Positions 19,986 to 46,749 of a stretch of 64,000 nt of DNA are shown piece after piece. The DNA lies in NCBI GenBank assembly GCA_036172245.1, contig JAYWIR010000001.1, forward strand, positions 11,470,001-11,534,000, written 5' to 3'. Made by a program: the position numbers and the translations under genes. Below the pieces are notes generated by a model. That model made no database searches. It was not told where the DNA came from and saw nothing but the letters and a program-made list of their open reading frames with translations. How positions within the stretch are numbered: position 1 is the first letter of the stretch; each line of letters opens with the position of its first letter. Source of the DNA: Raillietiella orientalis (lineage: Eukaryota).

Positions 19986-20007
19986 GTGTGCAGAGCGCGA
20001 CGCCATC

Positions 20008-26889: not shown

Positions 26890-27506
26890 GTGGGAAGGTG
26901 TCGAACCTAGAAGCGAAAGAAAAGCGACCACAAGATGAAACAGGACGGGAGCGAGTCGCCTAAATGGATCCAACGTGGATCAATCTTCTGGGGGGGTGGG
27001 AAGGGATCACTGCCCATTGGGAGGTGGGTGGATCCACCATACTTCTCAAGATGCCGTCGAGGTCCATCCGAATGTTTTCCAGGTAGGACTATCCGATCGC
27101 AATCCTCAGGAAGCAGACTGCAAACTAGAAGGCGTCCCATTCGTTGTTTCCTCCGCTGGCGTCGTTCCACGCAGCCACAATCTCTCGGACGCAGCAGAGC
27201 GCTGCCAGGGCTTCAGGTGGTCGCAGAACGTCCACCATGAAGAGGATCCCAAAAACTTCCCTGAGAGGGCTGCGAATCGGGATCCGGAGGGTTGACGAGA
27301 AACGTTGCCAAAGGGGTCGGAGGGCAGCGCAGTCCACTAACAGGTAGGGGAGGACTCCTTCCCGCACACTGCAAAGTTTTGTCCCACCTTTCCCAACGCC
27401 TAGTGGTGGCGGCGCGCGTTGCAGAGAAGACCCCAGTACAACAGCAGCAGCGTCGACTCCTGCCAATTTAGGGGGAGGACCCTGAATCTATTTAACAGAT
27501 TCGGGG
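26890..27506 (-). mobile_element. Main LINE family, 5'-truncated 3' fragment
   Basis: VLPLNWQE...LLVDCAALRPLW...LAALCCVREIV. It begins directly after the terminus of the copy at 27507. Confidence 0.85.
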
Positions 27507-29640
27507 TTACCACCCGGTCACGCCGGAGCATTTATTTAAACTCTACAAAAACGTGGTACGAGGCCCCACTAACAGCCACCACAACACCGGACCGGCCGGG
27601 ACGCCGGGACGCAGACCAGCAGCAGCGGAGGGATATGGGGGATAAAACAAAAAAAAAAATAAAATATAAGGAAAACAAAAAGAGTTGGGAGGGACGGGAA
27701 GGGATCACTGGCCACCGGGAGGAGAATCCATCCTTTGCAGGATGCCCTTCAGGTCCATCTGCATTCTTCCCAGCTGGGGTCATTCCGTTGCTCTTACTAG
27801 GAAGCGAACAGCATATGGGATGACTTCCCTGTCGTAAGCATCATCTTCTTCGTTGCGGACATCGCTCCAAACCGCCACGATGCCGCAGCTGCAGCAAAGT
27901 GCTGCCAGGGCTGTGGCAGGCTGCAAGGCGTCCCGCACGAAAAGAAGCAGAAAAACGTCTCTGGGCGCGCTGCCCGTTGGGAGCCCGAGGGTCGTCCCGA
28001 ATTGTTCCCATAGGGGTCGGAGGGTAACACAGTCAACAAGAAGGTGGGGGAGCGATTCCCGCTCCCCACACCTGGCATATTGAAGATTCACTGTTCCCCT
28101 CGTCCAGTGGAAGCGGAGTGCGTTGCAGGGTAGAACCAAATGCAACAGCAGCAACGCCGACTCTTGCCACTTCAGGGGGGAATTCCTGGATACAATCAAC
28201 CCTGGGGGCCACTTCAGCTCATCCATCGGGATGGCGACCAGCTCGCCCCATCTTGTTAATCCACGCGGAAGGACGCTCGGGGTCGTGGCATCCGCCAGCT
28301 CTCCAATGGTCCAACCGCTCATCTTCTTCTCTCTGCCTGCGATTAGACAGGAGACATGCCACTTAGGCGTCCGGCCGCTGGAGAAGGCCCTCCATAGGAA
28401 GGGAAGTGTCGCAGCCAAAGGGGTCGTCTCCGCCCTCGTGTCCCGGGGAGGACACAACAGAATGAAACGTAGGGAGCAGGGGGCGAAATTCGAAACTCGT
28501 AGGCAGTTCCAGTTTTTACTTCTCTGATTAATCTTCTCCCACGATCCAAAAGATTCCTACGGCCATGCGTGGGAGTTGGCGAGGTTGCATACTATCCAGC
28601 CGTTCCCCTTCACCAGTGTTTCCATGCGTCCAAAAAGAAGGCCGCAACTTCTGACTTTCCGGCCGGGGCAAGTACCGCGTACTCAAGGAATTCAGTACTC
28701 AAGGACTCGTCCTTGAGTACTGGAGACACGGCTGGCGAGGAGGCAGGCCGGAACGCACCAAGGGGTGCTCCACGACTTCGCTGCGATGGCGAGGGCGCGC
28801 CATCGCAGCTGAATCTCCAAGCGCTCCAGCGTGAGGAGGTCAAGACCACCGTCCCGACGCGGAGCGCATAAGTCTTTCAGAGGCACTCTGAGTGTCCCGC
28901 TACCCCCGAGAGAGATGCGGAGTATATCCTTAGTCCTCTTCTTCAACTGGGAAGGGACAGGGCAAACAAAAAGCAGGGGGCGGAGAATGGGAGTCCCGAA
29001 CGCGTTCCACACCGCGGCCTGTTCCGGCAGAAGGAACTTGCCTTCCAGGAACGGGCCGATCGCCAACTCTACCTTTTGGAAGCGACCTGACCAGGCTTCT
29101 GCGTGGCAGAAATCCCCCAACAGGATGCCCGGTACTTCAGGTACCTGGTCGTGGGGATCCTCAAACGGATCCAGTCAGGCCTTCCGACCCACGTCGCACC
29201 AACCGCCACCACCGACGACTTTGCCTTGTTCACCCGTAGTCTAGTCCCGCAACTTATCAGATCGAAGAAGTCCTCGACTGCGGCTGCCGGGGCGAATATG
29301 GGCAACAAGAGCAGAAGATCTTCGGCGTACGCAAATACGGCAGGCGTACCGGGGCACGAGCTCGGCAAGGCAGTCAAAGTCTCCCTGTACGCGCTCAGCA
29401 ACAACTCAAAGTAGGTGCTAAAGAGCAGGGCACTCAGACTATAGCCCTGCCGTAAGCCCCACCGCACCGGCACGCCGTACGCTATCTGACCACTGAAACA
29501 AACGTTGATTAGCGCGCTGCGCTAGCATGAGCGCAGGTAGGAGAGTAGGGAGGGTGGAAAACCCATGCGACCTAGGAGTTCCAGCAGGAGATCCTTGTCC
29601 ACGCAGTCCACCGCCTTGCTTGTGCGGGGTGGACGCCATG
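27507..29640 (-). mobile_element. Main LINE family, RT to 3' terminus (frameshifted)
   Basis: KAVDCVDKDLLLELL, GLRQGYSLSALLF, YAEDLL, PLKWQES, finger region, and terminus AATAAATGCTCCGGCGTGACCGGGTG. Confidence 0.9.
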
Positions 29641-30778
29641 TCTTGGTGCTCCTCGGTGCCGGAAACCCTCCCCTTAAAGCGAAGTTTCCGGTGGTTCGAT
29701 GGTCGCTCAGACAGCAACGCCTGACTCGACCACCAGTGAGTGCCAGGGGGCGGCGGCAACGTCGCCCCCAGAGGCGATGGAGGTGGGGGCATCCGCCCCA
29801 CAGAATCGGTCCCCGCTGCAGCGCGGGCGTGGAGCGCCGTTGTAGCGGCGCCATCGCCTGCAGCCGCGGCGGAATAGACTGCCTACGTGGAGGAGGGGTA
29901 TAATCCCTCACTACTCTATAAGGTAGACAATCTTCATTGTTCCGAGAACGCGCGCCTATTCCCAAAAGGGATGCGCGCTCTCAATGTAGAAGAGGAGGAG
30001 CTCAGCGTCATGACCATCCGCAGCGAAGAACAGTACGTTGAGGTGATCTGCGAACAGGCAGATCTGGCCCAGCGTCTGTTTAAAACCGCCGTGGTGATGG
30101 GGACACGCAGGCTCCTTCCCATTACGGTGAAACGCAGTGTGGTGGTCCAACTGTTAGGCGATACCGCGCTCATGCGTCGCGAAAGCGTACGCGCCGCGTT
30201 AGAAGAATACGGAACGGTGCACGCAATGTGGACGAAACGTAGTCCCTTTGTGGACTATACTCGACTGCAATGCGGCCTCACGGCTGCACGCGTCACCGTT
30301 CGAGAGGGCTGCAATCTTCCCCACAAACTGGTGGTCGGCGGCGAAACCGTGGACCTCTGGTATGTGGGGAAGCCCAAATACTGCGGCTTCTGCAACACGT
30401 CGGGCCACCTCAGAAAGAGGTGCCCCAACGTGCAGTGCCAAGTATGCGGGACCATGGGCCACACGCGGGAGGTGTGCCCACAAGCAGTTGTGCGCGTGGT
30501 GTCCGCGCGAAACGCGAAAAAACGCGCCCGGCTGCTCCTAAAAAGGCTGGCAGCGAAAGCTGCCGCCAAAGCTGTGCCACCCGCGCCCAAGGCTCAGGCT
30601 GCACCCTAGACCACGGCGAACAACGGCGAAAAGGTCGAGGGAAACGGCCAGGAGCCTGGGTGGCTGGTGGCAGCGGCTAGAAAGTCGAAAAAACAACGAT
30701 GACTTAAAAGGAAATTCGCATACCAACAGAAGAAGAAAGAGCAGGGTAGCGAGGCAATCAGAGAATGCAGCGTCGTCA
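29641..30778 (+). pseudogene. LINE ORF1 (gag-like, two CCHC zinc knuckles) with probable 5' region, C-terminally truncated
   Basis: ORF 29887-30609 has CGFCNTSGHLRKRC and CQVCGTMGHTREVC and is homologous to the ORF1 copies at 33.2, 42.4 and 43.6 kb. Confidence 0.85.
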
Positions 30779-32075
30779 TTTGTTACCCGGTTGCGCCGGG
30801 ACGTTTATTTCAAATCGTCTGGGAACTGTGTTCCCAGGCAAGGAAACAGGAGATGGGGAGGAGTGTACCCGACATGCAGGCCGGGCACACTGAGAGTTCG
30901 GAACGGCAGGGAGGGGACAATAAACAATTAAATAGGGTGGGAGGGTGGGGATAGGGGTATGCAGTCCAGCCGTTCCTATTCTCAGAACCGGCGGTGAATG
31001 CCGGCAATCTCCGTCCTTACTTCTGCTCCAAGGTGTGGCCACCCGGCAGCCATTTGCAGGTTGCAGGCTGCAGTTTCGGGGACCGATGTTGGGACCGCTC
31101 GCATCTGCAATACGTGGCGGGCCCTGACGATGGCGCGGACGCAGCAGATGAGTGCGACGACCGCTCCAAGAGAAAGACCGCGACGCGTGAAGAAGCGGCG
31201 CATCCAATGCATTGCGGTCTGTCCGGGGTGCAGGAGCGCTGAAGACAGCCGCCGCCACAGCTCCTGGAGGGCGCCGCATTCAAACAGCAAATGCGGAAGC
31301 GATTCCACCGCTCCGCATTGGGCACAGTTCGGGGACGCAACTCCCCTGGAAACCAGGTGCGCGCGCTGGTTGCAGTACAAACACCAATGCACCAGCAGAA
31401 AAGCGTCCTGTTTCCAACGAAGGGGGAAGACAGTCGCGTCCAAGCACGCAGAAGGGACCACAAGTTCTTCGGTGGGCACCCCGAGGAGCTCGCTCCACCG
31501 GAGAAGTCCCTTGGCACGAATGCAAGGCGAGGCAGCGTCTGCCAGCTCGCAGGTCCTCCAACCGCCCAGAAGTCGGGTTTCGCCTGCGCTATCGCAGGCG
31601 ACCTCCCACCTCGCCGGTAGGTCACTGTCGTCTCGCACCATCAGGGCAGCCAGTGCTGCGGCGAGAGTCGTAGCGGCTGGGCGTGTCCACTGGTCCTGGT
31701 CTTCCAACACCTCCCCCACTGGACAGTATGGAGAAAGGTTCACGCAACGGAGTTCCAATCGGGACACATCCTGTTGCGCTGCCCAGGACGATAAGGTTTC
31801 CTGCCTCCAGGCGTTAAAGTTCGTCGGCCGGCAGGAGATTCACGAATGCTTTCCCAGAAGCGAGCCGAGCTGCTTCAGAGGGAAGCCGAATCCTCTCAAG
31901 ACGCGCTCCGTGCGCAGGTGCAACGAACGCAGTCCGTCGCCACCCGTGCAGCGCCGCAGCAGCAGCGAAACTGGAGCACACTAGGGAGTAGTCCAAAGCT
32001 GGGCGCGAAGTGCCAGCATGCGGAACTGCACTGGCAGTCCGATCTGCTCCTACAAAGAACTCGCCGCTACCGACG
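30779..32075 (-). mobile_element. Divergent subfamily copy of the main LINE, 5'-truncated, with terminus
   Basis: ORF 30982-31767 (FPLRWKQDAFLLVHW, CAQCGAVESLPHLLFEC) and terminus AATAAACGTCCCGGCGCAACCGGGTA. Confidence 0.9.
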
Positions 32076-33030
32076 TTGTAACCCGGATACGCCCGGGGCG
32101 TTTATTGAAAATTCTACAAACGCGGTACAAGGCTCCGCTCACGGCCATAGACACCGGACCTGCCGGGACGCTGGGACGCAGCCCGGCGTGACTCTCCTCG
32201 GCAGTGAAAGGGATGGGGGAAAAAACAAAAAGAAAAATAGAAAAGAAAGAAACAAAAAGAGTTTGGAGGGAGGGGAAGGGATCACTGATCACTGCGAGGG
32301 CCCATCCGTCGAAGAAAGCCCTCGAGGTCCATCCGAATGTTTCCCAGATGGGTCATCTGGCAGCTCTCTGCATGAAGCGTACTGCATACTGGATGACGTC
32401 CCTCTCGTTCCAATCTTCCTCTCCGCTGTCGGCATCGCTCCAGGCCGCCACGATGCCTCGGACGCAGCAAAGTGCTGCGAAGGCTGCGGCTGGCTGCAGG
32501 GCGTTCCGCACGAAGAGGAGGCGGAAAACGTCTCTGGGCGCGCAGCACGTGGAGAGCCCGAGGGTCGTCCCCAACCGTTCCCAAAGGGGTCGGAGGGCAG
32601 CACAATCTACAATAAGGTGGGGAAGCGATTCTCGCTCCCCGCACCTGGCACACGCAGGATCCACAGCTCCCCTTGTCCAGTGGAAGCGGCGTGCGTTGCA
32701 GGTAAGCCCCAGTGCAACAGCAGCAACGCCGACTCTTGCCACTTAAGGGGCAGGATCCTGGATTCCTTCATCTCTGGAGGCCACTTCAGCTCATCCATCG
32801 GGATGGCGAGCAGCTCGCCTCATCTCTGTAGTCCACGCGGATGGACGCTCGGGGTCGTGGCGTCAGCCAGCTCTCCCGTGGTCCATCCGCTCATCAACTT
32901 CTCTCGTCCCGCGATGCAGCAGGAGACTTGCCACCGTGGCGTCCGGCTGCTGTTAAGCGCCCTCCTCAGGAAGGGCAAGGCCGTAGCTAGGCAGGTCGTC
33001 TCTGCCTAGCTACGGCCCTCGCCACTCCCA
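32076..33030 (-). mobile_element. Main LINE family, 5'-truncated 3' fragment with terminus
   Basis: CARCGERESLPHLIVDC and terminus AATAAACGCCCCGGGCGTATCCGGGTT. Confidence 0.9.
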
Positions 33031-33035
33031 GAACT

Positions 33036-33236
33036 TTGTGCCCTCCCTACATTTCTCCTTTTGTTTGTTTTTTGTTTTATTTCTTCCTACCCCCGCGCGT
33101 TGAATGGACCTCGCCGGTTTTTGCGCCGGCAACTAGCTTGCTGTTATGCAGTGGTGAGCCCTTGAGTTCACCACAAGAAACTAATATGAACTTTTATTTG
33201 TTTCAAATAAATGCCCCGGCACATCCAGGTGATAAA
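33036..33236 (+). mobile_element. Main LINE family, 3' UTR-only copy
   Basis: Pyrimidine tract, two hairpins, and AATAAATGCCCCGGCACATCCAGGTG. Confidence 0.8.
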
Positions 33237-33836
33237 TTCCTTTAATTCCTCGCGCAGAGAAATTTTGTTTTTGCCTTTCGCGGGTTTCTTCGGAACAATC
33301 GCGTTCTGATTTGCTTTTATTTGTAGGGGTTTTTTGGTTTTATTTTGAATTTCTTTTAATTTCTTATTTACGACCGTTTTCCAGCCTTCCTCGTCGGCGG
33401 TTGGCTCAGAAGTCTCCTTTTGAGAATTCCGGTCCATCTGCACGACTTCTTCTGAAGTTAGCTGGAGATCGCGTTGTATTTTGTTTTCCGCCTTCTTCCC
33501 CTCTTCCTGTATTTTCGGAGTGTCCGGCGTTGGAGCGGCGTTTTTCGGGCACACGACGCTAGTGTGGCCCTTCCCGTCGCACGTTGGGCATGTGACGTCC
33601 GGGCATCTCTTCTTGAGATGCCCAAACGTGCTGAATAGCCCGCAGTATTTCTCCTTCCCCACGTACCGGAGGTCAACGAGCTCGTCGTTGATCTCTAGTT
33701 TGTGGGGAATTTCGGTGTTTTCGCGGAGAGTTACACGTGCGGCGAATCGCCCACTAAATGCGCCTCGATATGTAAAGGCGTTGGGCTTGCTCCACATCGC
33801 GTATATCTCCGCGAATTTGTTAATTTCGGTGCGGAT
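33237..33836 (-). pseudogene. LINE ORF1 fragment (zinc knuckles)
   Basis: PHKLEINDELVDLRYVGKEKYCGLFSTFGHLKKRCPDVTCPTCDGKGHTSVVC. Confidence 0.85.
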
Positions 33837-34209
33837 GGCTTCCTCGCTCCTTCCTCTTGTCCAGGAACGCCGTACGTGGTGGCCTGTGCCGACGACCTGC
33901 TTCTCCTCTTACCCATGACCACCCCGGCGTCCAGTCTCGAGGATTTCTTCGAGCTGATCCGCCGGGGAGCGGGCATGAGCGTAAACCGGAGCAAGAGCGT
34001 GGTCGTTCCTGTTGGTGCAGCGTGGGAGGGGTAGTCCGACTGGATCCGCCTGGGGATCCCGACCGCTTCCTCCATCCAATATCTGGGCGTCCCGCTGGGG
34101 AACGTCAGCCGAGTGGAAGTGTGGTCGGACTGCCTTCGGAAGGCTACGAGTGCTCTGAGCCCGTTCCCCTTTGGCAGGTTCCTCCTGCCGGAGCGGACCA
34201 CCGTATGGA
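33837..34209 (+). pseudogene. LINE ORF2 RT fragment
   Basis: SSCPGTPYVVACADDLLLLLPMTTPASSLEDFF. Confidence 0.85.
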
Positions 34210-34822
34210 TTTTCACCCGGGTAAGCCGGGGCTTTTCTTATTAAAAATTTTTACAATTATGTATTTTATAATGAAGTCCTGTCGTCTGTACTTGTGTTCC
34301 AGTCAGAACACATTGTTCTTATTGTCTTATGCACTTTCCGACTTGTATGCCTGTAAGGTCCTCTACACTGGCGAAGGGGACGGGAAAAAGAGAAAAAAAC
34401 AAAAACAAAAAAAGAAAAACGCTTGGGGGACAATGTTTATGGCAGGGGAGGGAAGGGAAGGGAACACGGTACGCCATGGGGAGGCCTCTGCATCCCCACG
34501 GAGGCGAGACGCTCGGGGTTGTAGCGTCCGCTGGTTCCCGGGACGTCCACGCCTTCATCAGCTTTTTCCTGCCTCTGATGAGGCAGGACGCTGCCCACGA
34601 TGCCTCCTCTTGGCTGTCCCTGGCTTCTCTGAGGGAGGGCAGCACGGAGGCAAGGGGGGTTGAGGAAGCCCACAGAAGTTTCTGTGGGTTGGAAACGATC
34701 TCTTGCAGGGTCTGGCCAGCGTTCCTTCCTCGATGGAGGCAAAACTCCACATCGCTGGAGCCGTTGATCTTTGAATCTTTCCGGTCTCCCTGTCCGACTC
34801 ACCTACGGGGGCCACTTTTGCC
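34210..34822 (-). mobile_element. Main LINE family, short internally deleted copy with terminus
   Basis: WAASCLIRGRKKLMKAWTSREPADATTP joined to a 3' UTR; terminus GCCCCGGCTTACCCGGGTGAAAA. Confidence 0.8.
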
Positions 34823-35972
34823 TTTTACACCCGGGTGCGCCGGGGCGTTAATTTTTTAGTAAAAACAAACAAGCAAGTGTAGGGCTATTGCCCCTACAGC
34901 GTCCTAAAAAAAAAAAAAAAAATGTTCTAATAAAGAGTTGCCGAGTAGCAAGCACGCAGGCTGGCGAGTTCGACTCGGCAGCGGGGGGGGAAAGGACAAA
35001 TAAAAACAAAAAGAAAACACTATTTACAAAAGCAGGGAGGAGTTGGGGAAGGGATCACATTCCGCTGGAGTCGTCCTCTACATCCTTTCCAGGATGCCGG
35101 CAAGTTCGGTCCGCATATGCCCCAAATGGGACCATCTGGCTGCCGTCCTTAGGAAACGTAGGGCGGAGCAGATGATGTCCCTGTCGTTCGGTCCACCAGT
35201 GGCGGTGCTCCAGGCCGTCACAATCCCTCGTAGGCAGCAGAGGGCTGCAAGGGTTGCGGCAGGCCGAAGGGCGTCACTCACAAAGAGGCGCGTCAGAACG
35301 TCTCTAGGGTTGATCGAGGGTGCTCCTAGGGCCGTTGCGAAACGCAACCACAGAGGCCGGAGGGCAACACAGTCAAGAAGCAGGTGCGGGAGGGTTTCCC
35401 GTTCCCCGCACCTGACACAATTTGGGTCCACAGCCCCCCTCGTCCAGTGCGAACGGCGGGCGTTGCTGGGGAGTCCCCAGTGCAACACCAGGAACGCCGA
35501 CTCCTGCCACTTCAGGGGGAGGGCCCGGGTAGTCTTCAGCACCGGGGGCCACTCGAGTACATCCATGGGGATGCTCAGCAGCTCGCCCCAACGCAATAGT
35601 CCCTTTGGTGGGGCACTTGGGGTCGCAGCGTCTGTCAACTGGCCCGTGGTCCAACCACCTTGCTCTCTCTCTCTTCCAGAGATACTGGACCTCCCATTTC
35701 GCCGGCTGGCTACTGCCCAGGTGCTCCCTGAGGTGGGACAGAGCCGCGACAAGGGAGGTCCTCTCAGCCCACGCACTCAAGGTGGGCTGCACGATGATGT
35801 CCTGCAGCGAGCGGTTCTTGTGATAGGAGAGCAGCATTCGCTGCTGCAACTCCGGGCTCGCTTCCTCGATCTGGGCCCACGTGCGAAGGCTTTCCTGCAA
35901 CCAGGACGTACCGTTCGCGGGCCGGCAGGAGATCCAGGTGTTCGTTCTGGTCATCTTCGCCTCTCGCCGAAG
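34823..35972 (-). mobile_element. Main LINE family, 5'-truncated copy with terminus
   Basis: ORF 35078-35776 carries the C-terminal domain; terminus AATTAACGCCCCGGCGCACCCGGGTGTAAAA. Confidence 0.9.
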
Positions 35973-38082
35973 TTTTCACCCGGTCACGCCGGGGCGTTTA
36001 TTGCTAAACACTATGTTTTCGCGGTACGAGGCCCCGCTACGGCCAATAGTTCTTTGGACCTGCCGGGAAGCCGGCTCGCAGGCCGGCTTGACTCTCCTCG
36101 GCAGCGGAGGGGGTAGGGGGTAAAAACGAAAAGAAAAATAAAAGAAATAAACGAAAAGAAACTATTTGGAGGGCCGGGAAGGGATCACAGCCCGCTGGAG
36201 GAAGAGACCATCCTTTCGAGGATGCCCTCGAGGTCCCTCTTCATTGTTCCCAGATGGGACCAGCCGATCGCGATTCGCAGGTATCGACCAGCGTGTACGA
36301 TGGGATCCCTGTCGCTGCTTCCTCTGTTGGCTGCGCTCCAGGCGGCCACAATCCCTCGGAGGCAGCAAAGTGCTGCCAGGGCTGAGGCTGGTGTCAGGGC
36401 GTGTCGCTCGAAGAGGAGTCTCATAACGTCTCTGGGGGTGCTGCCTACCGGCATTGAAAGGTTCGTAGCAAAACGTTCCCACAAGGGCCGGAGGGCACCG
36501 CAGTCCACTAACAGATGGGGGAGGGATTCCTTCTCCCCGCACACTGCACAGTTCTGTTCAACATTCCCCCACGTCCAGTGGTGGCGGCGCACGTTGCAGG
36601 GAAGACCCCAGTGCAACAACAACAGCGCCGTTTCTTGCCACTTTAGGGGGAGGATTGATGAGCCAATGAACGACGGGGGCCACTCTAGGTCATCCGTCGG
36701 GATGCCAAGCAGCTCGCCCCATCTCCGTAGTCCATGTGGGTGAATTCTTGGGGTCGCGGCGTCAGCCAGTTCCCTCATGGTCCACCCAGTCAGATCCTTC
36801 TCTTTGCCCGCTATCCGGCAGGAGACTTGCCATCTCGGCTTCCGAATATTTTGGAGCGCCCTCCGTAGGAAGGGTAGCGCCGTGGCCAGTGGGGTCGTCT
36901 CCGCCCATGTGCTTCTGGCGGGACACACGATCATGTTCCGCAGCGTGCAGCGGGTGTAGATGCCGGTACGCAGGCCGTTGCAGGATTCTTCACTGATATT
37001 GTTTATCTTTGCCCAAGTTCCAACTGTTTCTTCCAGCCATGCGCTGGAGTTGGCGGGGCTGCAGGCCATCCACCTGTTCTCCTTTGCCAGGGTGGTCATG
37101 CGTCCCAGGAGAAGTCCGCATCTTCTTATTTTCCGGCCGGGGCACAGAAGAAAAGACGCGAGTCCTTCAGTCCCGGACACACGTCTGGCGAGAAGGCGGG
37201 CCGGTACGCACCACGGGGTGTTCCACATTTTCGCTGCGATGGCTAGAGTACGCCACCGCAGCTGTGTTTCCATTCGCTCCATCGTCAGTACGCTGAGACC
37301 TCCGTCCCGACGTGGAGCGCACAAGTCTTTAAGAGGCAAACGAGGCCTCCCGCCTCCCCACAGGGCGATACGTAGGAGGTCCTTCGTTCTTTTTCTTAAT
37401 TCACGGGGTACGGGGCAAACAAAAAGTAGGGGGCGAAGGAGGGGGGCCGCGAACGCGTTCCACACCGCGGCCCGTTCCGGCAAGTGAAACTTGCCTTCCA
37501 GGAACGGGCCGATCGCTGACTCCACTTTTTGGAGACGACCTGACCAGGCTTCTGACTGACAGAAGTCCCCCAACGGAACGTCGAGGTACTTTAAGTACCT
37601 GTCCGTGGGGATCCCCAGGCGGATCCAATCAGGTCGTCCTGCCCACGTAGCACCAACCGCAACCAGCGACGACTTCGTCCTGTTCACCCGTAGTCCTGTC
37701 CCACGGCTCAACAATTCGAAGAAATCCTCGACTGCCGAAGCCGGGGCGGACATGGGCAGCAGGAGCAAAAGATCGTCAGCGTACGCCGACACAGCCGGCG
37801 TACCTGGACACGAGCTTGGCAGGACAGCCAATGTCACCCTGTATGCTCTCAGCACCAGTTCGAAATAGGTGCTGAAGAGTAGGGGACTCAGGCTGTCGCC
37901 CTGCCGGATGCCGCGCCTCACCGGTACGCCGAACACATGCTGTCCTCTAAAAAATACGTTAATGATCGCATTGCGCCAGCAGGCGCGCAGGTAAGCCAGT
38001 AAAGTGTTCGGGAAGCCCATGCGATCCAGGAGCTCCAGAAGGAGTTCCTGGTTTACACAATCGAGCGCTTTGTGCAGATCGA
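35973..38082 (-). mobile_element. Main LINE family, 5'-truncated copy with an uninterrupted ~630-codon RT-to-C-terminus frame
   Basis: ORF 36185-38089: DLHKALDCV, GIRQGDSLSPLLF, YADD, KYLDV, CAVCGEKESLPHLLVDC. Terminus AATAAACGCCCCGGCGTGACCGGGTGAAAA. Confidence 0.95.
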
Positions 38083-38299
38083 TTTTCACCCGGATTTCTC
38101 CGGGTCGTTTATTAAAAAATAAACTTTATAAAGTAATTATTAATGGCTGTGGCAATGCTCCAGCCAGAAGCTAAGATCCACGGAGCCTGCCAATTCACCG
38201 GTTTCTAGACCGGTACGGTCCACAAAGGCAGCACGGGAAAGGAAAGAAACAAAAAAACTAAACAAAAAGAAACAAAGGGTGGGAGGGAACGGGAAGGGA
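38083..38299 (-). promoter_or_regulatory. 3' UTR and terminus of the ORF2-complete copy (pyrimidine tract, structured region, AATAAA, terminal hairpin)
   Basis: Ends in AATAAACGACCCGGAGAAATCCGGGTGAAAA; same layout as the other copies. Confidence 0.85.
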
Positions 38300-41200
38300 T
38301 CACTGATGCTGCTGGGGCCGCATCATCCCTCTCAGGATGCTGACAAGCTCTTGTTTGTTATGAAAATCCAGGTGGGGCCATCGCGACGCCCTCCTCAGGA
38401 ATTGGGAGGCGCACTGGATGGCGTCCTGATCGCTAGGTCCTCCCGTCGCCGTGCTCCAGGCGGCGACGATCCCACGAAGGCAGCACAAGGCTGCTATCGA
38501 GGACGCTGGCCGCAGGGCGTCGGCAACGAAGAAGGCTTTTAGTGCGTCCCTGGGATTGCCGCAAGGGATACCGATGGCCGCGGCAAAGCGGAACCAAAGG
38601 GGCCGAAGGGCAACACAATCCACTAGGAGGTGGGGGAGGGACTCCCGTTCCCCGCACCTTACACAATTGGGATCCACCGCTCCCCAGGTCCAGTGGTGTC
38701 GACGGGCGTTGCAGGGGAGTCCCCAGTGCTGCAACAGGAATGCCGACTCTTGCCATTTTAGGGGGAGGATGGAAGTGTTCATAAGAATCGGGGGCCACTT
38801 CAGATGTTCAATCGGAACATCCAGCAGCGCTCCCCAGCGCAGAAGTCCATTAGGAGGCGTACTCGGGGTCGCAGCATCAGTTAGCTGGCCCGTCTTCCAC
38901 TCTCTCTGCTTCTTCTCCTTCCCGGAGATTTTTATTGTAACCTCCCACTTCGCCGCAACATCGCTGTCCTGTTGTTCCACTAGGGAGTCCAGCGCAGCAG
39001 CGAGGGGGGTTCTTCCTGACCACGCTCTCTTCTTAGGATCCTCCAGGATCTCACGGAGCGTGCAACTTCTGTAACACCCAAACAGGAACCTTCGTTCCTG
39101 ATGGGAGGGTTGCATGCCGAACTGTCCCCACGTGCGAACGGTTTCCTGCAACCAGGCACTACCGTTCGCGGGGAGACAGGTGATCCATCCTTGATTTTTC
39201 CTTGCCAGCGCAGCCACCCTCCGTAGCTGAAGCCCACATCGGTTGATGCGGCTTCGATGGAGTGCAAGAAACGACGTAAGTCCCGTCTTGCCGGTGGCTT
39301 GCTGAAGGAGGGGACGTGCAGGGACACACCAACAGGTGCACCACAACTCCGGCACAAGTGCCAAAATCCGGAACTGGAGCTGCAGCTCCAGCCGCTCCAA
39401 TGTCAGGAGGCCGAGACCACCGTCCCGACGCGGAGCGCACAAGTCCTTTAAGCGGACTCGGGCCCTCCCGTTGCCCCAAAGGGCGATACGGAGGAGGTCC
39501 TTCGTCCGCTTTTTGATCCTCTCTGTGGGGGGGCAAACAAAAAGCAGGGAACGGAGGAGAGGAGCCGCGAACGTGTTCCAAACCGCGGCCCGTTCAGGCA
39601 GGAAAAACCTGCCGCCTCGGAACGGGCCGATAGCCGTCTCTACTTTTTGAAGGCAGCCGGACCACGCTTCCGCAGGGGAGTAGTCTCCCAACGGCACACC
39701 AAGGTACTTGAAGTACCTCACCGTGGGGATCCCCAAACGGACCCAGTCCTGCTGCCCTGCCCACGCCGCACCAACTGGCATCACGGACGACTTCGCCCTG
39801 TTCACCGTAAGCCCGGTTCCTCGATTCAGCAGGTCGAAGAACTTCTCGACCGCCGAAGCCGGGGTGGACATAGGGAGCAGTAGCAGCAGGTCGTTCGCAT
39901 ATGCTGAAACCCCAGGCGTTCCGGCGCATTCATGCGGCAGGTGCGCCAGAGTTTCCCTGTACGCTCTCAGTACCAACTCAAAGTAGGTACTGAAGAGCAA
40001 GGGGCTCAGGCTGTCTCCTTGCCGGATCCCACGTCGCACCGGCACGCCGTGAACAGTATGCCCGCTGAAAGTAACATTGATTTGCGAATCGCGCCAGCTA
40101 GAGCGCAGATAGGCCAATAATGAGGCCGGGAAGCCCAAGCGTTCCAAAAGCTCCAGCAGGAGTTTCTGGTCGACGCTGTCGAATGCTTTACGCAAGTCGA
40201 CAGCGACCGCAAGTGCTCCCTCCCCCATCCGACCATCCGTCGCATGACTGACGGACTCACCGGAATTCCCGGTGCGCATCAAGCCCCTTTCGTGTTGGAG
40301 CTCTAGCCAGGTGGAAGCGTGGAACAGGTTCGTCTCCATGCTTCGCCCCGGAACAGCATACGTCTGTTCCGGGCTGATGAAGGCGTTTGCAACCCGTCCC
40401 AAACGCTCAGCCCAAACCTTAGCTATCAACTTGGCATCCGCATTCACTATTGTGATGGGACGCCAGTTGTTCATGCTCCTCAGATCTCCTCCCTTAGGGA
40501 GAAGCCGCACCTTTGCCGAACGAAACGAGGCGGAAACGTCACCTGTCTCGCGTATCAGCAAGGTGAGTTGATGTACCAGGGGGGTTAGCTCAGCCGCGAA
40601 AGTTTGATAAAACTCCGCGGACAGGCCGTCCTCCCCTGGAGCCTTTCGCCTCTTGAGCTTTCCGATGGCCGAGATGATCTCGCCCATCGTGAAAGTCTCG
40701 TCGAGGGACTTTTTCTCCTCTTCCCCGATCGCAGGAGCGCCTTCCGGAAGCAGGATTCGTGAGAAATCCCGCTCGGGAGGCGTTCTTGCGTACAGGGAGG
40801 AGTAAAAACGCCGCAGCAGACCGCGGATCTGAGCGGGTGCCGAATGCTCCTGGCCCTGATCGTCCAGCAAGCTGGCCGATCCTGACTGCCAGGCTTGCCT
40901 CTCGGCTCCCGCTTTGTATTCCGCCAGCCTGCGGATGTCGGAGGTCCTGGCGTAACGGCGAGCCTGCAGATAGGCTCGTTCGTTACGTACCCCGTCCCCA
41001 AATCCCGAAGGTAGGCGGTGCCGAGGGAACTGGTCGCAGAACTCCTGGACCGACCGCTTGAAGCGGTCCCAATCCTGAAGTGTCTGCATCCTAAAGCTCC
41101 GTATAAACGTGCGGAGATGTTCCGTCGCGTCCGGGAGCTTCAGCCAGTCCCCTGGCAAACGCCACGCTGACGAGGGGGGGGCCCTGTCGCGCGGATGGAT

Positions 41201-41884
41201 TTCAATCACGATTGGTCGATGGTCGGACAACTCGCACGGCAACTTGCAGCGCCTGCCCACACGAGTGCACAGGTGCTCGTCAAGGAACACGTGATCGATG
41301 TTGTCCTCCATCCCTGGTACACTGGCCAACAAATTACAAGTGTGCACCGCCGCGCACACCTCGTTGACCAGGTCACGCTCGTGATTCGGCCCGTCCGGTT
41401 TCAGACGAACGTTAAAATCGGCTGCAACCAGATGGGCATTCCGCACGCCTGCCTCGGTCAACCAGTCGCGATGGAGGGCAAGGAAAAATTCTTTCCTGGC
41501 CCTCCTGTTCGTCAGGTCCGCTCCGCTCGGGGCGTAAACGTTCGTAACGATCAGGTCGATCGAGTCGGACCAGCTGAGAGTCAGCTGGCCGACACGACCG
41601 TGATCGTCGAACCGAACTGCACGGGCGGCGGCCTCGACGGCGGGCCGAAGCAGGTAGGCGACACCACAACTTCTCGATGTTCCACACCGATACCACAGCC
41701 GCCCTCCGTAGATGCGTTCGATCTCCTGCGCTTGTTCTGCAGAGATCACATGGATCTCCTGCAGCAGCACAAGGTCGAACGATCCTAGAATGGCGGCCAT
41801 GTCTCGTCTCCTGCCGGCGTCTGTCATCCCGTTCACGTTCCAAACGGCGATGCGCAGACGACGGCAGGAGGAGATTCCCGGCAT
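38300..41884 (-). CDS. LINE ORF2 polyprotein, L1/Tx1-type: APE endonuclease + reverse transcriptase + C-terminal Cys/His finger (1194 aa; catalytic motif YAND)
   Basis: APE motifs WNVNG, LQE, NVYAP, ADFN, IDH, SDH. RT motifs KAPGEDG, WRPIT, DLRKAFDSV, GIRQGDSLSPLLF, YAND, KYLGV. Finger CVRCGERESLPHLLVDC. Confidence 0.95.
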   Translation of the reverse strand: MPGISSCRRLRIAVWNVNGMTDAGRRRDMAAILGSFDLVLLQEIHVISAEQAQEIERIYGGRLWYRCGTSRSCGVAYLLRPAVEAAARAVRFDDHGRVGQLTLSWSDSIDLIVTNVYAPSGADLTNRRARKEFFLALHRDWLTEAGVRNAHLVAADFNVRLKPDGPNHERDLVNEVCAAVHTCNLLASVPGMEDNIDHVFLDEHLCTRVGRRCKLPCELSDHRPIVIEIHPRDRAPPSSAWRLPGDWLKLPDATEHLRTFIRSFRMQTLQDWDRFKRSVQEFCDQFPRHRLPSGFGDGVRNERAYLQARRYARTSDIRRLAEYKAGAERQAWQSGSASLLDDQGQEHSAPAQIRGLLRRFYSSLYARTPPERDFSRILLPEGAPAIGEEEKKSLDETFTMGEIISAIGKLKRRKAPGEDGLSAEFYQTFAAELTPLVHQLTLLIRETGDVSASFRSAKVRLLPKGGDLRSMNNWRPITIVNADAKLIAKVWAERLGRVANAFISPEQTYAVPGRSMETNLFHASTWLELQHERGLMRTGNSGESVSHATDGRMGEGALAVAVDLRKAFDSVDQKLLLELLERLGFPASLLAYLRSSWRDSQINVTFSGHTVHGVPVRRGIRQGDSLSPLLFSTYFELVLRAYRETLAHLPHECAGTPGVSAYANDLLLLLPMSTPASAVEKFFDLLNRGTGLTVNRAKSSVMPVGAAWAGQQDWVRLGIPTVRYFKYLGVPLGDYSPAEAWSGCLQKVETAIGPFRGGRFFLPERAAVWNTFAAPLLRSLLFVCPPTERIKKRTKDLLRIALWGNGRARVRLKDLCAPRRDGGLGLLTLERLELQLQFRILALVPELWCTCWCVPARPLLQQATGKTGLTSFLALHRSRINRCGLQLRRVAALARKNQGWITCLPANGSAWLQETVRTWGQFGMQPSHQERRFLFGCYRSCTLREILEDPKKRAWSGRTPLAAALDSLVEQQDSDVAAKWEVTIKISGKEKKQREWKTGQLTDAATPSTPPNGLLRWGALLDVPIEHLKWPPILMNTSILPLKWQESAFLLQHWGLPCNARRHHWTWGAVDPNCVRCGERESLPHLLVDCVALRPLWFRFAAAIGIPCGNPRDALKAFFVADALRPASSIAALCCLRGIVAAWSTATGGPSDQDAIQCASQFLRRASRWPHLDFHNKQELVSILRGMMRPQQHQ

Positions 41885-43385
41885 TACTGCCGGGAATATG
41901 ACGGTGTGGGGGAACCCGCCTCTTCCGAGGCGGGTGAGATGACCATTAGGGTTTCAGCCTCCTCAGGCACCTTGGGTATCCTACGGCGACAGGCGAGTCC
42001 AGGTGTTAATCCTGGGAAATTGGCAATGGGGCTCCCGCCACCTTGTCGGGCGGGACGCTAGGAGGAGGGGGTGCGTCGCGCACCGCTTCTCCCTCCTCCA
42101 TGGAGGACGAATCGTCGTCGGGGCTTTGCAGAGGAAGTAGGGGTTCACCCACCTGCACATCCTCCTCCATGGGGGTCGCTAGCTGCACGGTGTCGGGGAA
42201 TGAGATATTCCCACCCACGCTGCCGGCTTCCCCCTCGGGGGCCGATTCATCCGCCTCCTTATTGATCCGGATGCGCCTCCTGGGATTCTGAGACTTACTT
42301 CTTTGGTCTTCTTTGGTGGAGCCTCCGCTGAAGAGGACGCACTTTCGACGTCCGGATCGGCCTCACCTGCCTCCGGAGCCTTCCTCGCGGCCGGCCTTCG
42401 CAAGGCTTTTCGCGAGTTCTTCTAACGGCCTTGCAGTTCAGCCGCGAGTTCTTCCACCGCCTGCTGGAAGGCGGCCTCCTCGATCGCGTCGAGCGCGGCG
42501 CGCGGTTCCCCCTCGGTTTCCCCAGAGGGTTCGCCATCGACCGTCGCGGCTTCGGCGGACGCGAGGGGGGGGATTGCTCCCCCGGCGGCGGCATCGGGTG
42601 CCTCCACACGCTCTAATTTTACCGAACAAGCGCGGAGTTTTTCGCGGCACGGTTTTTCGCGCTGCGTTTTTGTTTTCACCGCGTTTCGTTCGGGACTCCC
42701 GGGCTTTCTTCTGGGCTGTACCGTCTGCCAGCCTTCGTCGGGAGCATCTTCGCCGTCTCCAGCATCGTCGGGAGTACTCTCAACCGACGTTTGCTGGGAG
42801 GGTTTAAGGACTGGCATCTGGCTTTTTGCAGCCTGTTTCAAGTTATTCTCCTCTCCCGCCCGTTTGCCCTTTGCCTTTTTGGCAGCGGGTGGGACCGGGA
42901 TTTCTCTTCTTGGGCACACCTTGCGAATGTGGCCCTTATTTCCATATAAGTGGTATTGGATGTTAGGGCACCACTTTTTTAGATGCCCTGTAGCATCGCA
43001 TTGGCCACAATACTTGGGCTTACCCACGTACCAAACATCGACTTTTTCTTCGCCGATATTCAGTTTGTGGGGAAGCCCACCATTCTCCGGTAGTGTGACG
43101 CAGGCAGCGGCCATTCCACTGAATAGCCTTCCGTACGTTCGGAAGACATTGGGTTTGGCCCAATACGCGTGCACACTACTATGCTTCGACAACTCCTCAT
43201 GGACGCTGGTTTTGTCCATTCGGAGTGATACGCCAGTGAGGTGGACCACGACGGAGCGGTCCTCCGTCACAGGGAAGATCCTGCGGCCGTCCACCGTAAT
43301 AGGGATGTTCAGCAGTCGCTGCGCCAGACTTGCCTCTTTGCATGTCAGCTCAACTCGCTGGCCCCCACTAAGGACGGATAGGCCT
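41885..43385 (-). pseudogene. LINE ORF1 (frameshifted, 5'-truncated) upstream of ORF2
   Basis: ORF 42422-43294 with KYCGQCDATGHLKKWC and a degenerate second knuckle; the C-terminal part is spread over several frames. Confidence 0.85.
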
Positions 43386-43625
43386 CAAGTGCCAGTCCGC
43401 AGTGGAACAGGTACCGGCGTTTGCGGCGCGCTAGGAAGGTAGACAGTCCCGCGCAGCCGCTAGCTCGCTGAACCAGGCGTCGTGCAGGCTCGCACCAGCT
43501 GGTGCTCCATAGCTTCGCTACTAGGGCTAGAGTCCTGAACTGCAGCTGCAGTTCGAGGCGCTCCAGCGTGAGGAGGCCGAGGCCTCCATCGCGACCAGGG
43601 GCACATAAGTCCTTCAAACCCACTT
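43386..43625 (-). pseudogene. LINE ORF2 internal fragment lodged between two ORF1 copies
   Basis: LKDLCAPGRDGGLGLLTLERLELQLQFR. Confidence 0.85.
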
Positions 43626-45075
43626 TTGCCGGAGCCGGTCTGCGCACCCCCTTGCTCGAGGGGTTCTCGCGCTCGACGAGCGTTACCGCGAGCACCTCTG
43701 CCGCCTTCTCGAAGGCGGCGTCCTCGCTGTCGGCGAGCTTGTCGCGCGACTGACCCTCTGCGCAAGCAGAGGGTGCGCCTTCGCGCGAATCGATCGCGGC
43801 GGGAACGGCTATGGAAAGTGTTTCGCCTCGGGTGGCGTCGGCGGGAACATCTGTACGTTCTAGTGCCACCGAGCACTGGGAGAGAGTTTTAATACGCGGC
43901 ACAGATTTGGTCTTTCCTCCGATCGCGGTCTCCTCCGCGTTTTTCTCGACAGTTTTGTCCCTCTTCTCCTTTTTAGCCTTAACAAGCTGCCAGCCCTCTT
44001 CTCCCTCTACGACGTAGGGGACCTTGTCCTCCGAAGCCGGTTTTGGGGATTGGGGCGTTGGCTGCTGTTGTCGGCCATTTTCGCGGATATTAACTTTAAC
44101 TTTTCCCGCGTGTTTCTTCTGCGCCTTTTTTGCGTTTGGAGGAATCGGGGTGGGGCGTTTCGGGCACACACGACGGACGTGGCCCTTCTCCCCGTATATG
44201 TAGCACTCGATGTTAGGGCACCTCTTGCGGAGATGCCCTACTGCATCGGAGTAGCCACAGCACCGGCGCTTCCTCACATATTAGAGGTCGACCGAATCGT
44301 TCGCCACCTCTAGTTTGTGGGGGAGTCTACCTTCTTCCTTAACGGCGACGCGTACTGCAGCCATTTCCCCGACAAGGCTGCCGTAGCCCTCAAAGATCGT
44401 GGGATTCGGCCACAGAGCGTGTACATCGCCGTACTTTCGCAATTCCTCACTAACCGCAGAGAGCGTCATGCAGTTAGTGATTCCTGTCAAAGGGACCACT
44501 ACCGAGTGGTCCATTGACACCAGGAAGATCTTACGGCCATCCACGATCAACGGGTTGTTAATCAGGCGCTGAGCTAGGCTGATGTCTTTATACACCAGCT
44601 CAACGCGCTATGCCCCTCTGAGCACGGACAGACCGTCAAGATCTTCCTCTCGCCATTGATTTCTTGAAACGCTCTGCTGAAAGAGCGTGCCGTCTTGCCG
44701 TCAAATAAAGGGGCCTACCTTGTATACAAGTGATGGCTTCTATCCCGTAGCCCTGTAGCCGGCTTGTTTGGCCAAGGCTTAAGCGGTGGGGCGGCGACCA
44801 TGACGTTCCAACTCCTCGCCGCGGCGAAGAGGATCCTGGGGCAGATGCCCCATCTCTGCAGGTTGTGGGGGGAGACCTTCCTCCCCCACACCTACCTCCA
44901 CCACGGTGTCCTCTGGCAACGCTTCCATCGGACACCGACGATCTACACTACACACCACACAAAAAAGAAAAGAAAGGGACTTTCCAAGGACTCGTTCACG
45001 GAGCGCCCGAAAACCACGTCCTCCCAAACCAGGTTTCGGCGAAGGCGAAACCTGGTTTTCAGAAGCCTGTTGGAA
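43626..45075 (-). pseudogene. LINE ORF1 N-terminal two-thirds plus probable 5' UTR
   Basis: LAQRLINNPLIVDGRKIF...PHKLEV and degenerate knuckles. The N-terminal part is similar to 29780-29990. A T-rich tract and hairpin lie upstream. Confidence 0.75.
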
Positions 45076-45921
45076 ACATGGAAGGTCGTCTGCTAGATGG
45101 GATGCCGAAGAAAAAGCGTTAATTGCGCGAACCACGAAACAACTGACTGACGCTGTGACCCCGAGTGTCCTACCTAAAGGACTTTTGCGCTGGAGTGAGC
45201 TGTTGGGAATTTCCCTGGAAGACCTCGAGTGGCCCTCAGTACTCTGGAACACTAGCATCCTCCCACTCAGTTGGCAGGAGCCAGAGATGATACTGTTACA
45301 TTGGGGCCTCCGATGCAACGCCCACCGACATCCTTGGATTTGAGGGGCGCAAGTCCGAACTGTAGCAGGTGTAGGGAACGGGAATCCTTCCTATACCTGC
45401 TTGTAGATTGTGTTGCCCTCCGGCCCCTATGGGAACGCTTTGTTGCGACCCTAGCAACCCTAGTGACGTAAGTCAACCCCGAGGCCGCAAGCTCATCCTC
45501 CGTTGAGCCTCCCCCTGGAAGTGAAAACGTAAAACCAAGACTACGAGGAGGCACATCCTGCCCCAAGAGGGAAACGAGCCGGCATCCGAAAGGGAAGCCG
45601 GCAGCTTGGAAACACAGGACTCCTGCGGTGGGAATCACCCACATCCCGACGCCGAGCAAGCAACCCCCATGGAGTGGGCCAGCAGGTGCACCATGGAAGG
45701 GACATTTCTGCTTGCGCCCCCGCCCGAATAGGTGGCGGGAGCTGCAGCATCAACTTCCCAGGAGTTACTCCTGGGCCCGCCTCCCGCCGCCGAATCCGTG
45801 TGGCCTGTTGGAACGTCAACGGGCTGCGCGGCGACGGCAGAAGGCGAGATGTGGCCGTCACCCTGCCGACCTAGTGCCCCTGAGGGAGATAACGTGATCT
45901 CCGCAGAGAATGCCCAAGGGA
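45076..45921 (+). pseudogene. Two LINE fragments: ORF2 C-terminal region (to ~45470), then the ORF1/ORF2 junction with the start of APE
   Basis: ILPLSWQEPEMILLHWGL, then FPGVTPGPASRRRIRVACWNVNGLRGDGRRRDVA. Confidence 0.8.
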
Positions 45922-46680
45922 TTTCTCACCCCGTCACGCCGGGGCGTTTATTTTAGAGAAAATAAACCAGCTGGGAACAGAGTTCCCAACCGACGACAAA
46001 ACAAGCAATGGGGAGGGTCTGCTGGCACGCAGGCTGGCATAACGGAAGTTTGGAACCGGACAGGAGGTGGGAGACAGCCAAAAAAAATTAAATGTGGTGG
46101 GATGGGACAGGGGTCTTTAAGATAGCGCCGGGAGATACTGGGGTCAAAACAAAAACGCCGGGGAAGTTGCGAAGCAAAAGGGGATGGGAGATGAGGAAAA
46201 AAAAAAAAAGATGTTGGTAAAGGGAAAGGTCCACCGGGTTCCACCGTTCTTAACTGTCCATCAACCGACGGTGGATGTCGACGATCTCCTCCTTTGTTTG
46301 TTCTTCCAGGTGAGATCACCTTACAGCCATTCTCATGTACGCGGCTGCCAGACTGTGGACCTCCCTTCACTGCGCTCTCGTCCCCATGGCGTAGCGGGTC
46401 TCAGCAATGTCGCGAATTAAAAAGCTGTTGGAACTACGGCGCCACTGAAAATCCGTTGCTCCTGAAAAAACGCCACCGCAGATCCTTCTCAGAGTCCTCC
46501 TGGAACGGGGCGCCTAAAGCCAGCCACCGCCACAGTCCGCGGAGGGCACCACAGTCGAGCAAAAGGTGCCCGAGCGTCTCGATCTCCCAACACCTCGAGC
46601 AGTTCCGGGAAACAACTTCCCTGGAAACGAGGCTTTAGCGCTGATTACACGGGAACTCCCAGTGTTAAAGCAGCAGCAAG
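45922..46680 (-). mobile_element. Main LINE family, decayed 3' fragment with terminus
   Basis: CSRCWEIETLGHLLLDCGALRGLW remnant; terminus AATAAACGCCCCGGCGTGACGGGGTG. Confidence 0.75.
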
Positions 46681-46749
46681 TACTGTTTTCATCCTAAAGT
46701 AAACACCGGGGTGCCTAAACAAGCGGGGAAACCACTAGTTTTTCGGAGA

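Follow-up and report, generated by a model that had tools for sequence, protein, structure and literature searches.

How does a chain of long interspersed nuclear elements (LINEs) come about in which neighbouring copies are different, and in which the 3′ terminus of one copy joins directly to an internal position of open reading frame 2 (ORF2) of the next? The question is raised by 64,000 nucleotides (nt) of the genome of Raillietiella orientalis (GenBank assembly GCA_036172245.1, contig JAYWIR010000001.1, positions 11,470,001 to 11,534,000 of the forward strand), a stretch that we call the window and number from its first letter. The LINE elements between 26890 and 43385 lie on the minus strand, and those at a second site, at 63713, on the plus strand. 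A preliminary description of this DNA listed six such junctions (38082/3, 35972/3, 34822/3, 32075/6, 27506/7 and 63714/5), and all six are present to within 1-2 nt; at 38082/3 the minus strand reads ...CCGGAGAAATCCGGGTGAAAA and then, without a break, TCGATCTGCACAAAGCG, which gives DLHKA. We name the copies of the longer chain A, B, C and D, in minus-strand order. When analyzed together with the sequences around it, this chain turns out to be a block of A and B nested in another element, Z (made of the parts Za, Zb and C), followed by D.

The junction at 35972/3, between B and C, is an ordinary nested insertion. Copy C (34824-35972, minus strand; 4160 to the terminus in the coordinates of copy A, which we use throughout as A-coordinates) is the 3′ half of Z, and the 5′ part of Z lies on the far side of A and B, at 43386-45057 on the minus strand. 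This 5′ part consists of Za (43630-45057), which runs from a probable full 5′ end to A-coordinate ~1040 and includes an ORF1 at 43669-44634, and Zb (43386-43629; A-coordinates 3923-4163, ORF2 residues ~823-910), the two being separated by an in-frame internal deletion from ~1040 to 3915 at 43629/30. Zb ends ...TGCGGACTGGCACTT at 43386 (CAC TGC GGA CTG GCA CTT), exactly where C begins, with CTTCGGCGAGAGG at 35972 (CTT CGG CGA GAG GCG). Joined once through CTT, the two halves read H-C-G-L-A-L-R-R-E-A, against R-C-G-L-Q-L-R-R-V-A in copy A, and when 7 other copies are aligned with them, Zb runs collinearly into C without losing a nucleotide. The CTT overlap of 3 nt, present on both sides, corresponds to a duplication of 0-3 bp or to microhomology.

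The same relation is seen in an independent run, X1, in which 0.15 of the sampled words matched and which provides short contigs from a relative, mostly 90-95% alike. In one X1 contig (~93% alike) 35969 is followed by 43387, with an ambiguity of 4 letters, and in another 13 divergent letters stand between 35957 and 43394. Because these contigs join the two halves of Z, an uninterrupted form of the Z lineage exists elsewhere. Among the X1 contigs listed no bridge over 38082/3 is seen, which speaks neither for nor against the join there. Z is somewhat older than its guests A and B, since C carries 1 frameshift and 1 stop. The preliminary description found no upstream half of the interrupted copy past 43385 and no target-site duplications (TSDs) where it looked, and took plain nesting to be a poor fit. 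The stretch 43386-43629, however, is just such an upstream half, that of copy C, with CTT shared, and for 35972/3 the premise is wrong, given the collinear halves of Z and the X1 contig that joins them. The more general statement that reciprocal halves are missing falls for this junction but stands for the other five same-strand junctions, none of which has its other half in the window.

With Z restored, what remains between its halves is A and B. Copy A (38083-43385, minus strand; A-coordinates 1-5303; 5.3 kb) is 5′-truncated inside ORF1 and has its terminus at 38083, ending GTGAAAA. It is fused exactly at this terminus to copy B (35973-38082, minus strand; A-coordinates 3186 to the end; 2.1 kb), which starts directly there, truncated at reverse transcriptase (RT) motif A, the DLHKA motif, and which has an intact 626-codon open frame and its own terminus at 35973. 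There are 0 nt between the GTGAAAA of A and the TCGATC of B, no CTT or other copy of the target lies between A and B, and the 5′ half of B is found nowhere in the window. Except for A and B, Z is uninterrupted on both sides, with no loss of target and only the CTT overlap. A and B occupy a single target site in Z. Moreover, because Z is intact on both sides, the 5′ half of B has not been deleted.

Are A and B simply duplicates of each other? The preliminary description regarded neighbouring copies as different variants rather than tandem duplicates, and we agree. Nucleotide identity lies at 52-78% for every pair of copies, and between A and B the ratio of nonsynonymous to synonymous substitution rates (dN/dS) is 0.19, a divergence that excludes tandem duplication. 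The synonymous divergence (dS) between A and B is 1.53 over 624 codons, and neither copy has any stop or frameshift. Given these values together with the low dN/dS, A and B are separate lineages maintained by selection and not duplicates in decay.

The reading that we favor for A and B, at about even confidence, is that both arrived in one chimeric insertion, in which the RT jumped from one template to the 3′ end of the next RNA. The RT, attached to the nicked target in Z, would copy the RNA of B as far as RT motif A, and would then carry on at the 3′ end of a second LINE RNA, that of A, placed there by the hairpin of A. The exact terminus of A would thereby be fused to the truncated 5′ end of B, and the 5′ end of A would then be joined to Z. 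We infer a one-event jump, as opposed to RNA ligation or two precise insertions, and likewise that it is the hairpin that positions the RT on the acceptor RNA. Of the mechanisms offered earlier for all of these joins, template jumping is thus the favored one for A and B, two intact elements at one site, and stays undecided for the four other same-strand joins.

The hairpin belongs to a 3′ terminus that is precise and shared by the whole family, as the preliminary description had noticed. The 3′ untranslated region (UTR) is ~220 nt long and ends AATAAA-N2-3-CCCGG-loop-CCGGG-TG-NNAA. We accept 17 termini with this architecture in the window, every one of which stops 4 nt past GTG; 16 of them come from a motif search allowing at most 2 mismatches and were retained where AATAAA and the hairpin accompany the motif, and the remaining one, at ~48665, is degenerate and was recognized by eye. 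The termini at 8171 and 9973 are one end doubled by an inverted repeat, which leaves 16 independent termini. No poly(A) or A-rich tail, of the kind expected in the L1 superfamily, follows any of the 17. The final four letters vary by lineage (AAAA, ATAA, GTAA, AGAA, AATA, ACAA) while their number is constant at four, and because they are lineage-specific and always four, the end of the terminus is copied from the RNA, the target contributing nothing to it. Folding predicts a hairpin, 5-7 nt from the end, in all 8 termini to which it was applied, although it beats shuffled sequences in only 4 of them (z −2.6 to −2.8). Rfam finds no ribozyme at the element ends.

The element itself falls in the L1 superfamily. 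The ORF2 of copy A (38303-41884) is intact, with ~1,194 codons counted from the first Met, and includes an endonuclease domain of the APE type (Pfam Exo_endo_phos, 1.4e-12) and a reverse transcriptase (Pfam RVT_1, 7e-22). Its C-terminal CX2C...H...C pattern is seen in the translation P0001, where the zf-RVT model reaches 21.5 bits against a cut-off of 27.5. The ORF1 remnant of copy A (42422-43384) is an open frame with two CCHC knuckles visible in translation; by Pfam zf-CCHC the knuckles have E = 0.033 on the ORF1 of Z and no match on that of copy A. Among solved proteins the best relative of copy A ORF2 is human L1 ORF2p (3e-45), and R2 proteins match at ~1e-13. We therefore assign the element to the L1 superfamily by its APE and RT domains and by human L1 ORF2p being its best solved match; judged from its sequence, it would be a LINE with CCHC knuckles in ORF1 and with APE, RT and a C-terminal CCHC in ORF2, about 5.7 kb when complete. 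Only one protein comes close to it. An exhaustive search of 1.84 billion representative proteins gives as closest a protein from a metagenome contig (P0009, 71%), then one in a record of the sea turtle Lepidochelys olivacea (P0010, 34%), and the remaining relatives are at ~29%. A word-based protein search returns 4 weak matches only, and the ESM Atlas only generic clusters with APE and RT. A scan for the terminal motif finds it in 0 viral contigs, and its matches in metagenome contigs (77 loci) are chance matches, as 0 of the 77 fit the LINE profile.

What weighs against a template jump in A and B? Theirs is the sole clean junction: two different transcripts in the same orientation at one site, with the upstream partner complete at its 3′ end, are found at one of the five orphan junctions. 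With no more than 0-3 bp of overlap at the Z site, one event is not separable from two, and the only hint on simultaneous arrival is that both partners have intact ORFs. Neither filler nucleotides nor microhomology are seen at the join. The same product would result from RNA ligation, or if a second element entered at a boundary still unsealed, and a read-through transcript of an earlier nest of A in B would give an identical structure. Same-strand joins are not in excess (6 same-strand vs. 4 opposite-strand). Finally, the fragments that we call O, K, L, P and Q, which have opposite-strand or internal junctions, lack their 3′ remainders, and copy F lacks its terminus. As no jump and no self-targeting explains the missing remainders of O, K, L, P and Q, the pile of LINE copies around A and B (26982-48665) has lost DNA, and a missing 5′ half is therefore weak evidence at the four orphan joins other than that of A and B.

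The most probable of the rivals is two separate insertions at the same nucleotide, due either to an endonuclease that prefers the DNA just past its own terminus or to a boundary left fragile or unsealed. The structure of A and B in Z is equally compatible with it, there are five same-strand orphan junctions in one 64-kb window, and for Drosophila, tandems in which a tail meets a 5′-truncated copy of an element without long terminal repeats (non-LTR) are ascribed to repeated insertion at one locus in the cases treated by McGurk and Barbash (2018, PMC5932611). We regard it as unlikely. The copy of the target duplication expected between A and B is absent, albeit a weak test for a duplication of at most 3 bp, and a strike on the exact nucleotide by chance in a 20-kb pile would occur about once in 10,000 times per insertion, by a rough estimate. 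The sequences that follow the 17 termini share no motif, as a defined target of the Tx1 type would, and the only target that can be reconstructed, that in Z (GGACTGGCACTT followed by CGGCGAG), is unlike the terminus. The 16 independent termini abut same-strand LINE in 6 cases, opposite-strand LINE in 4, and in at least 6 DNA without LINE similarity (in 1 of these 6 flanks LINE resumes after ~140 nt). The split of 6 vs. 4 is no strand bias (p = 0.75), and 10 LINE targets among 16, given a LINE cover of 43.5% for the whole window, show no enrichment (p = 0.10). On these grounds the earlier proposal of an endonuclease that cuts at the end of its own family is not supported. Read-through, a form of 3′ transduction, reproduces the observed structure exactly and by ordinary steps: a full-length A sits in B somewhere else, its transcript runs past the end of A to the terminus of B, and the RT starts at the hairpin of B and inserts the composite, 5′-truncated in the ORF1 of A, into Z. 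The 3′ hairpin is conserved between lineages, which would make the end of B usable, and same-strand nesting does occur locally, as in B next to C. Such a transcript must, however, bypass an AATAAA placed 24 nt before the terminus of A, a normal cleavage distance, and the five pairs, each of different lineages, need a separate source nest per pair; we consider this reading distinctly improbable.

A third possibility is that all junctions are plain nested insertions whose other halves were lost later by deletion or rearrangement in a repeat-rich region. Nesting is proven for one of the six junctions, DNA is missing around O, K, L, P, Q and F as described above, and internal deletions are found in Z (~1040 to 3915), in D (~4570 to 5056) and in a copy at 14976 (3883 to 4630). 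In addition, fragments that flank inserted blocks often share a strand and stand in the right order, with gaps of 0.6-4.3 kb (L/P, Q/N, O/J and K/G). Loss of halves leaves A and B unexplained, since not a nucleotide of Z is missing on either side; all 10 LINE-abutting termini in the pile are intact, and random deletion would not respect termini; and the O/J and K/I pairings exclude each other, so that some of the matching halves are coincidental. As an account of the whole chain we find it slightly less probable than read-through. The least probable by far is that broken or terminal chromosome ends were capped serially, in the manner of HeT-A/TART, or that the assembly is at fault. Arrays of 5′-truncated LINEs in one orientation do resemble telomeric arrays, as described for Drosophila in PMC5932611, and a 504-nt inverted repeat in another part of the window, perfect in its match, gives the assembly or locus at least one suspicious structure. 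Capping, one of the original proposals, is rejected because Z lies on both sides of A and B and because a telomere-like repeat is absent from the 64 kb (Tandem Repeats Finder reports 2 rows, both unrelated); the orientations are mixed as well, with 79% of LINE bases on the minus and 21% on the plus strand. As for misassembly, no repeat in 26-49 kb exceeds 86% over 162 nt, with the 30-nt termini reaching up to 93%, so that the copies are too divergent for repeat-driven misjoins to be likely, and the X1 contigs agree with the relation of Z and C.

The inverted repeat just mentioned has its arms at 8112-8615 and 9529-10032, 100% complementary and with 913 nt between them, and takes in the last 60 nt of a LINE copy (6416-8171) and 444 nt of its flank. 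Either a palindromic duplication took place here very recently or the assembly is in error at this point. At the A and B join itself, the frame of B stays open for 14 codons back into the 3′ terminus of A (SLFFNKRPGEIRVK-IDLHKA; 38083-38125 into 38082). We considered coding that reads on from the terminus of A into B, extending 39 RT alignments by tblastn; the match 'PGEIRVKIDL' is weak, and we judge it a chance extension.

How far does the favored reading, a template jump, extend beyond A and B? Four other joins (Z/C to D, I to H, G to F, and 62634 to 63716) show a terminus and then the 5′-truncated start of a copy from another lineage, whose reciprocal half is missing upstream, and the upstream copy of each has as its own upstream neighbour an opposite-strand fragment or non-LINE DNA. 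The long chain resolves into two-copy blocks, and some of these four joins are probably chimeric insertions too. Looking for separated halves, we find same-strand fragments in the right order for L/P, Q/N, O/J, K/G, K/I and D1/F, with gaps of 0.06-4.3 kb, which we rejected as proof. Some of these pairings must be coincidental because O/J is incompatible with K/I. For copies in non-LINE DNA no clear TSD is seen by eye, their 5′ boundaries being imprecise.

As to the region as a whole, our reading, again at roughly balanced confidence, is that 26982-48665 is a pile of transposons in which many long-diverged lineages of one L1-superfamily LINE have accumulated through target-primed reverse transcription. 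Reverse transcription would begin at a fixed nucleotide, 4 nt past a small 3′ hairpin, and leave a sharp, tail-less end. Most new copies would be 5′-truncated and would land in older copies in either orientation, producing joins of a terminus to internal ORF2. Our map of the pile derives from an nhmmer profile seeded with copy A, which gives 36 matches, of which we retain 32; the four dropped are short and antisense or self-palindromic (30316-30398 minus, 33654-33709 plus, 40711-40808 plus and 41360-41467 plus). LINE sequence covers 93% of 26982-48649, and 10 of the ~20 fragments in the pile carry termini. No DNA similarity is seen among the gap pieces of the map, and 14 long ORFs outside it have no Pfam match. 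The GC content is 0.53-0.60 in the pile (26000-48000) vs. 0.37-0.48 at the window start (1-6000), and the LINE clade is far more GC-rich than the adjoining non-LINE DNA.

From low to high coordinates, the pile begins with copy F (26982-27506, minus; A-coordinates 4593 to ~5111), which starts directly after the terminus of G and lacks its own terminal hairpin, broken near 26980. Copy G (27507-29619, minus; 3195 to the end; 1 frameshift and 5 stops) abuts F with its terminus at 27507, and stands head-to-head with fragment O (29620-30779, plus), which runs from a probable full 5′ end through ORF1 to A-coordinate ~745. The terminus of copy H (30780-32075, minus; ~3963 to the end), a divergent copy at ~55% nucleotide identity to A, abuts the opposite-strand O at 30780. 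Copy I (32076-33006, minus; 4366 to the end) abuts H with its terminus at 32076, and is head-to-head with copy J (33007-33235, plus), a short 3′ UTR copy (~5070 to the end) whose terminus at 33235 cuts fragment K (33236-33853, minus), part of an ORF1 (~165-780). Fragment L (33854-34209, plus; ORF2, 3454-3809) is cut by the terminus of copy D. D itself (34210-34823, minus) starts directly after the terminus of Z/C, at A-coordinate ~4147-4213 as judged by eye, has its internal deletion at 34497-34502, and abuts the opposite-strand L with its terminus at 34210. Beyond the 5′ end of Z we find fragments P (45058-45464, plus; 4418-4837) and Q (45470-45924, plus; 1023-1667), copy M (45923-46744, minus; 4577 to the terminus) and copy N (46746-48665, plus; 3333 to the degenerate terminus; 14 stops). 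At the second site (62634-63993, plus), the copy at 62634-63713 ends ...GGGTGATAA, and a different copy, starting from 63716 at A-coordinate 4717, leaves the window.

Several observations on these copies deserve recording in their own right. A perfect palindrome (32979-33017; 16-nt arms, 7-nt loop) marks the very point where I (minus) and J (plus) meet head-to-head; only 0.3% of random positions in the pile have one as good within 70 nt, and it could be the snap-back of a cDNA end. We considered snap-back for a palindrome at the 5′ end of Z as well, where a hairpin with 13-nt perfect arms stands at the very end, adjoining P. A similar GAAAC...GTTTC hairpin occurs in the 5′ UTR of O (29661-29693) as in that of Z (45026-45058), both probable complete 5′ ends, so this palindrome is probably intrinsic and the hairpin probably a conserved feature of the 5′ UTR. 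The internal deletions are clean in all three copies (Z at 43629/43630, D, and copy 14976 at 15685/15686) and are either intramolecular template switches or later deletions; that of Z joins the end of ORF1 to ORF2 residue ~823, giving an in-frame ORF1-ORF2 fusion ORF of 311 codons. In element coordinates, 5′ ends and break points pair up: 3186/3195 (B, G), ~4147/4160 (D and the insertion site in Z), 4577/4593/4630 (M, F, 15686) and 5056/~5070 (D2, J). Four gaps of at most 16 nt are seen vs. ~1.3 expected by a rough hand estimate, and these may be preferred sites for the RT to stop or switch. Outside the pile, Rfam finds a full-length U4 small nuclear RNA (19447-19585, plus; 93 bits) and a weak U2 (3563-3741, minus; 51.6 bits, cut-off 46). 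A U4-LINE chimera of the U6/L1 type (19447-21300) was considered and rejected, because ~380 nt of other sequence separate U4 from a different, lower-GC, 5′-truncated LINE that ends at ~21295, and this is not a direct fusion.

Why should one junction matter? If joins like that of A and B are regular, they offer a natural system for how the RT of a LINE picks its next template, in which junctions are exact thanks to the hairpin-defined start and each partner can be identified because so many lineages co-exist. The choice of the next template bears on the origin of chimeric retrocopies and of LINE-only clusters, such as the centromere-like domains of some algae. A bolder idea, which we put forward tentatively and think rather unlikely, is that the RT of this hairpin-ended clade habitually relays, within a single integration, from one LINE RNA to the 3′ hairpin of another, with the growing cDNA as primer in the way that a nicked target is. 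Were that true, heterologous head-to-tail (perhaps also head-to-head) blocks would be regular, in up to 5 of the ~25 copies of the window and far above what has been described for L1, and the relay would help to build LINE-only chromatin domains. A more practical lesson is that apparent head-to-tail chains of LINEs should be parsed as nests first: here the key half lay one base past the reported interval.

Which known systems does this locus resemble? Template-switch chimeras of LINEs (U6/L1, Alu/L1 and others of mammalian L1) are flanked by one TSD in the cases described in PMC2104539 and PMC13174262, in which the MGL-LINE/WEIRD/Mg-SINE chimeras of Magnaporthe also appear as template-switch retro-insertions. 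To judge from those examples, A and B are alike in having two different transcripts in the same orientation at one target site, a downstream 5′-truncated LINE that gives the priming 3′ end, and an upstream partner complete at its 3′ end. They are unlike them in that each partner is an autonomous LINE, the two coming from different lineages of one clade, and in the join at a hairpin-defined terminus that is not poly(A); the target duplication is 0-3 bp, vs. 14 bp or L1-type TSDs in the chimeras described there. Ligation of RNAs before reverse transcription, which has been proposed for U6/L1, could also have preceded the insertion of A and B. For the non-LTR elements of Drosophila melanogaster, tail-to-internal tandems are reported as common by McGurk and Barbash (PMC5932611), with the caveat that nested insertions can mimic them. 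Those tandems, as presented there, lie within one family, arise by repeated insertion at one site, and have a copy of the TSD in the junction where that was tested. In contrast, A and B are of different lineages, and their junction has no copy of the target.

HeT-A/TART arrays form at a chromosome end, in one orientation and with no distal flank; here the orientations are mixed, and A and B have a half of Z on either side. The RT of R2 can pass from the end of one RNA to the 3′ end of another without homology, and this end-to-end jumping would be the very activity that the favored mechanism for A and B requires. R2, on the other hand, has a restriction-like endonuclease and a fixed target in the ribosomal DNA, whereas the element described here, which is known from its sequence, is of the APE type and closest to L1 ORF2p. 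In layout and composition the pile is like the Zepp and ZeppL elements, L1-type LINEs of the green algae Chlorella, Coccomyxa and Chlamydomonas, which form GC-rich nested clusters, mostly of 3′ ends, in the accounts of PMC3446292 and PMC8226300: here, too, there is a nested cluster of mostly 3′-terminal LINE copies with a GC peak, at 56-60% in the pile vs. 37-42% at the window start, where the Coccomyxa Zepp values given are 61% vs. 53%. Zepp clusters, as characterized in those papers, consist of one or few families, number one per chromosome and are associated with centromeres, whereas this pile mixes many lineages that have diverged widely from one another. The region thus combines known patterns, nested LINE clusters and LINE chimeras, and what is particular here is the pairing of two autonomous LINEs from different lineages, joined exactly through a 3′ end that is defined by a hairpin.

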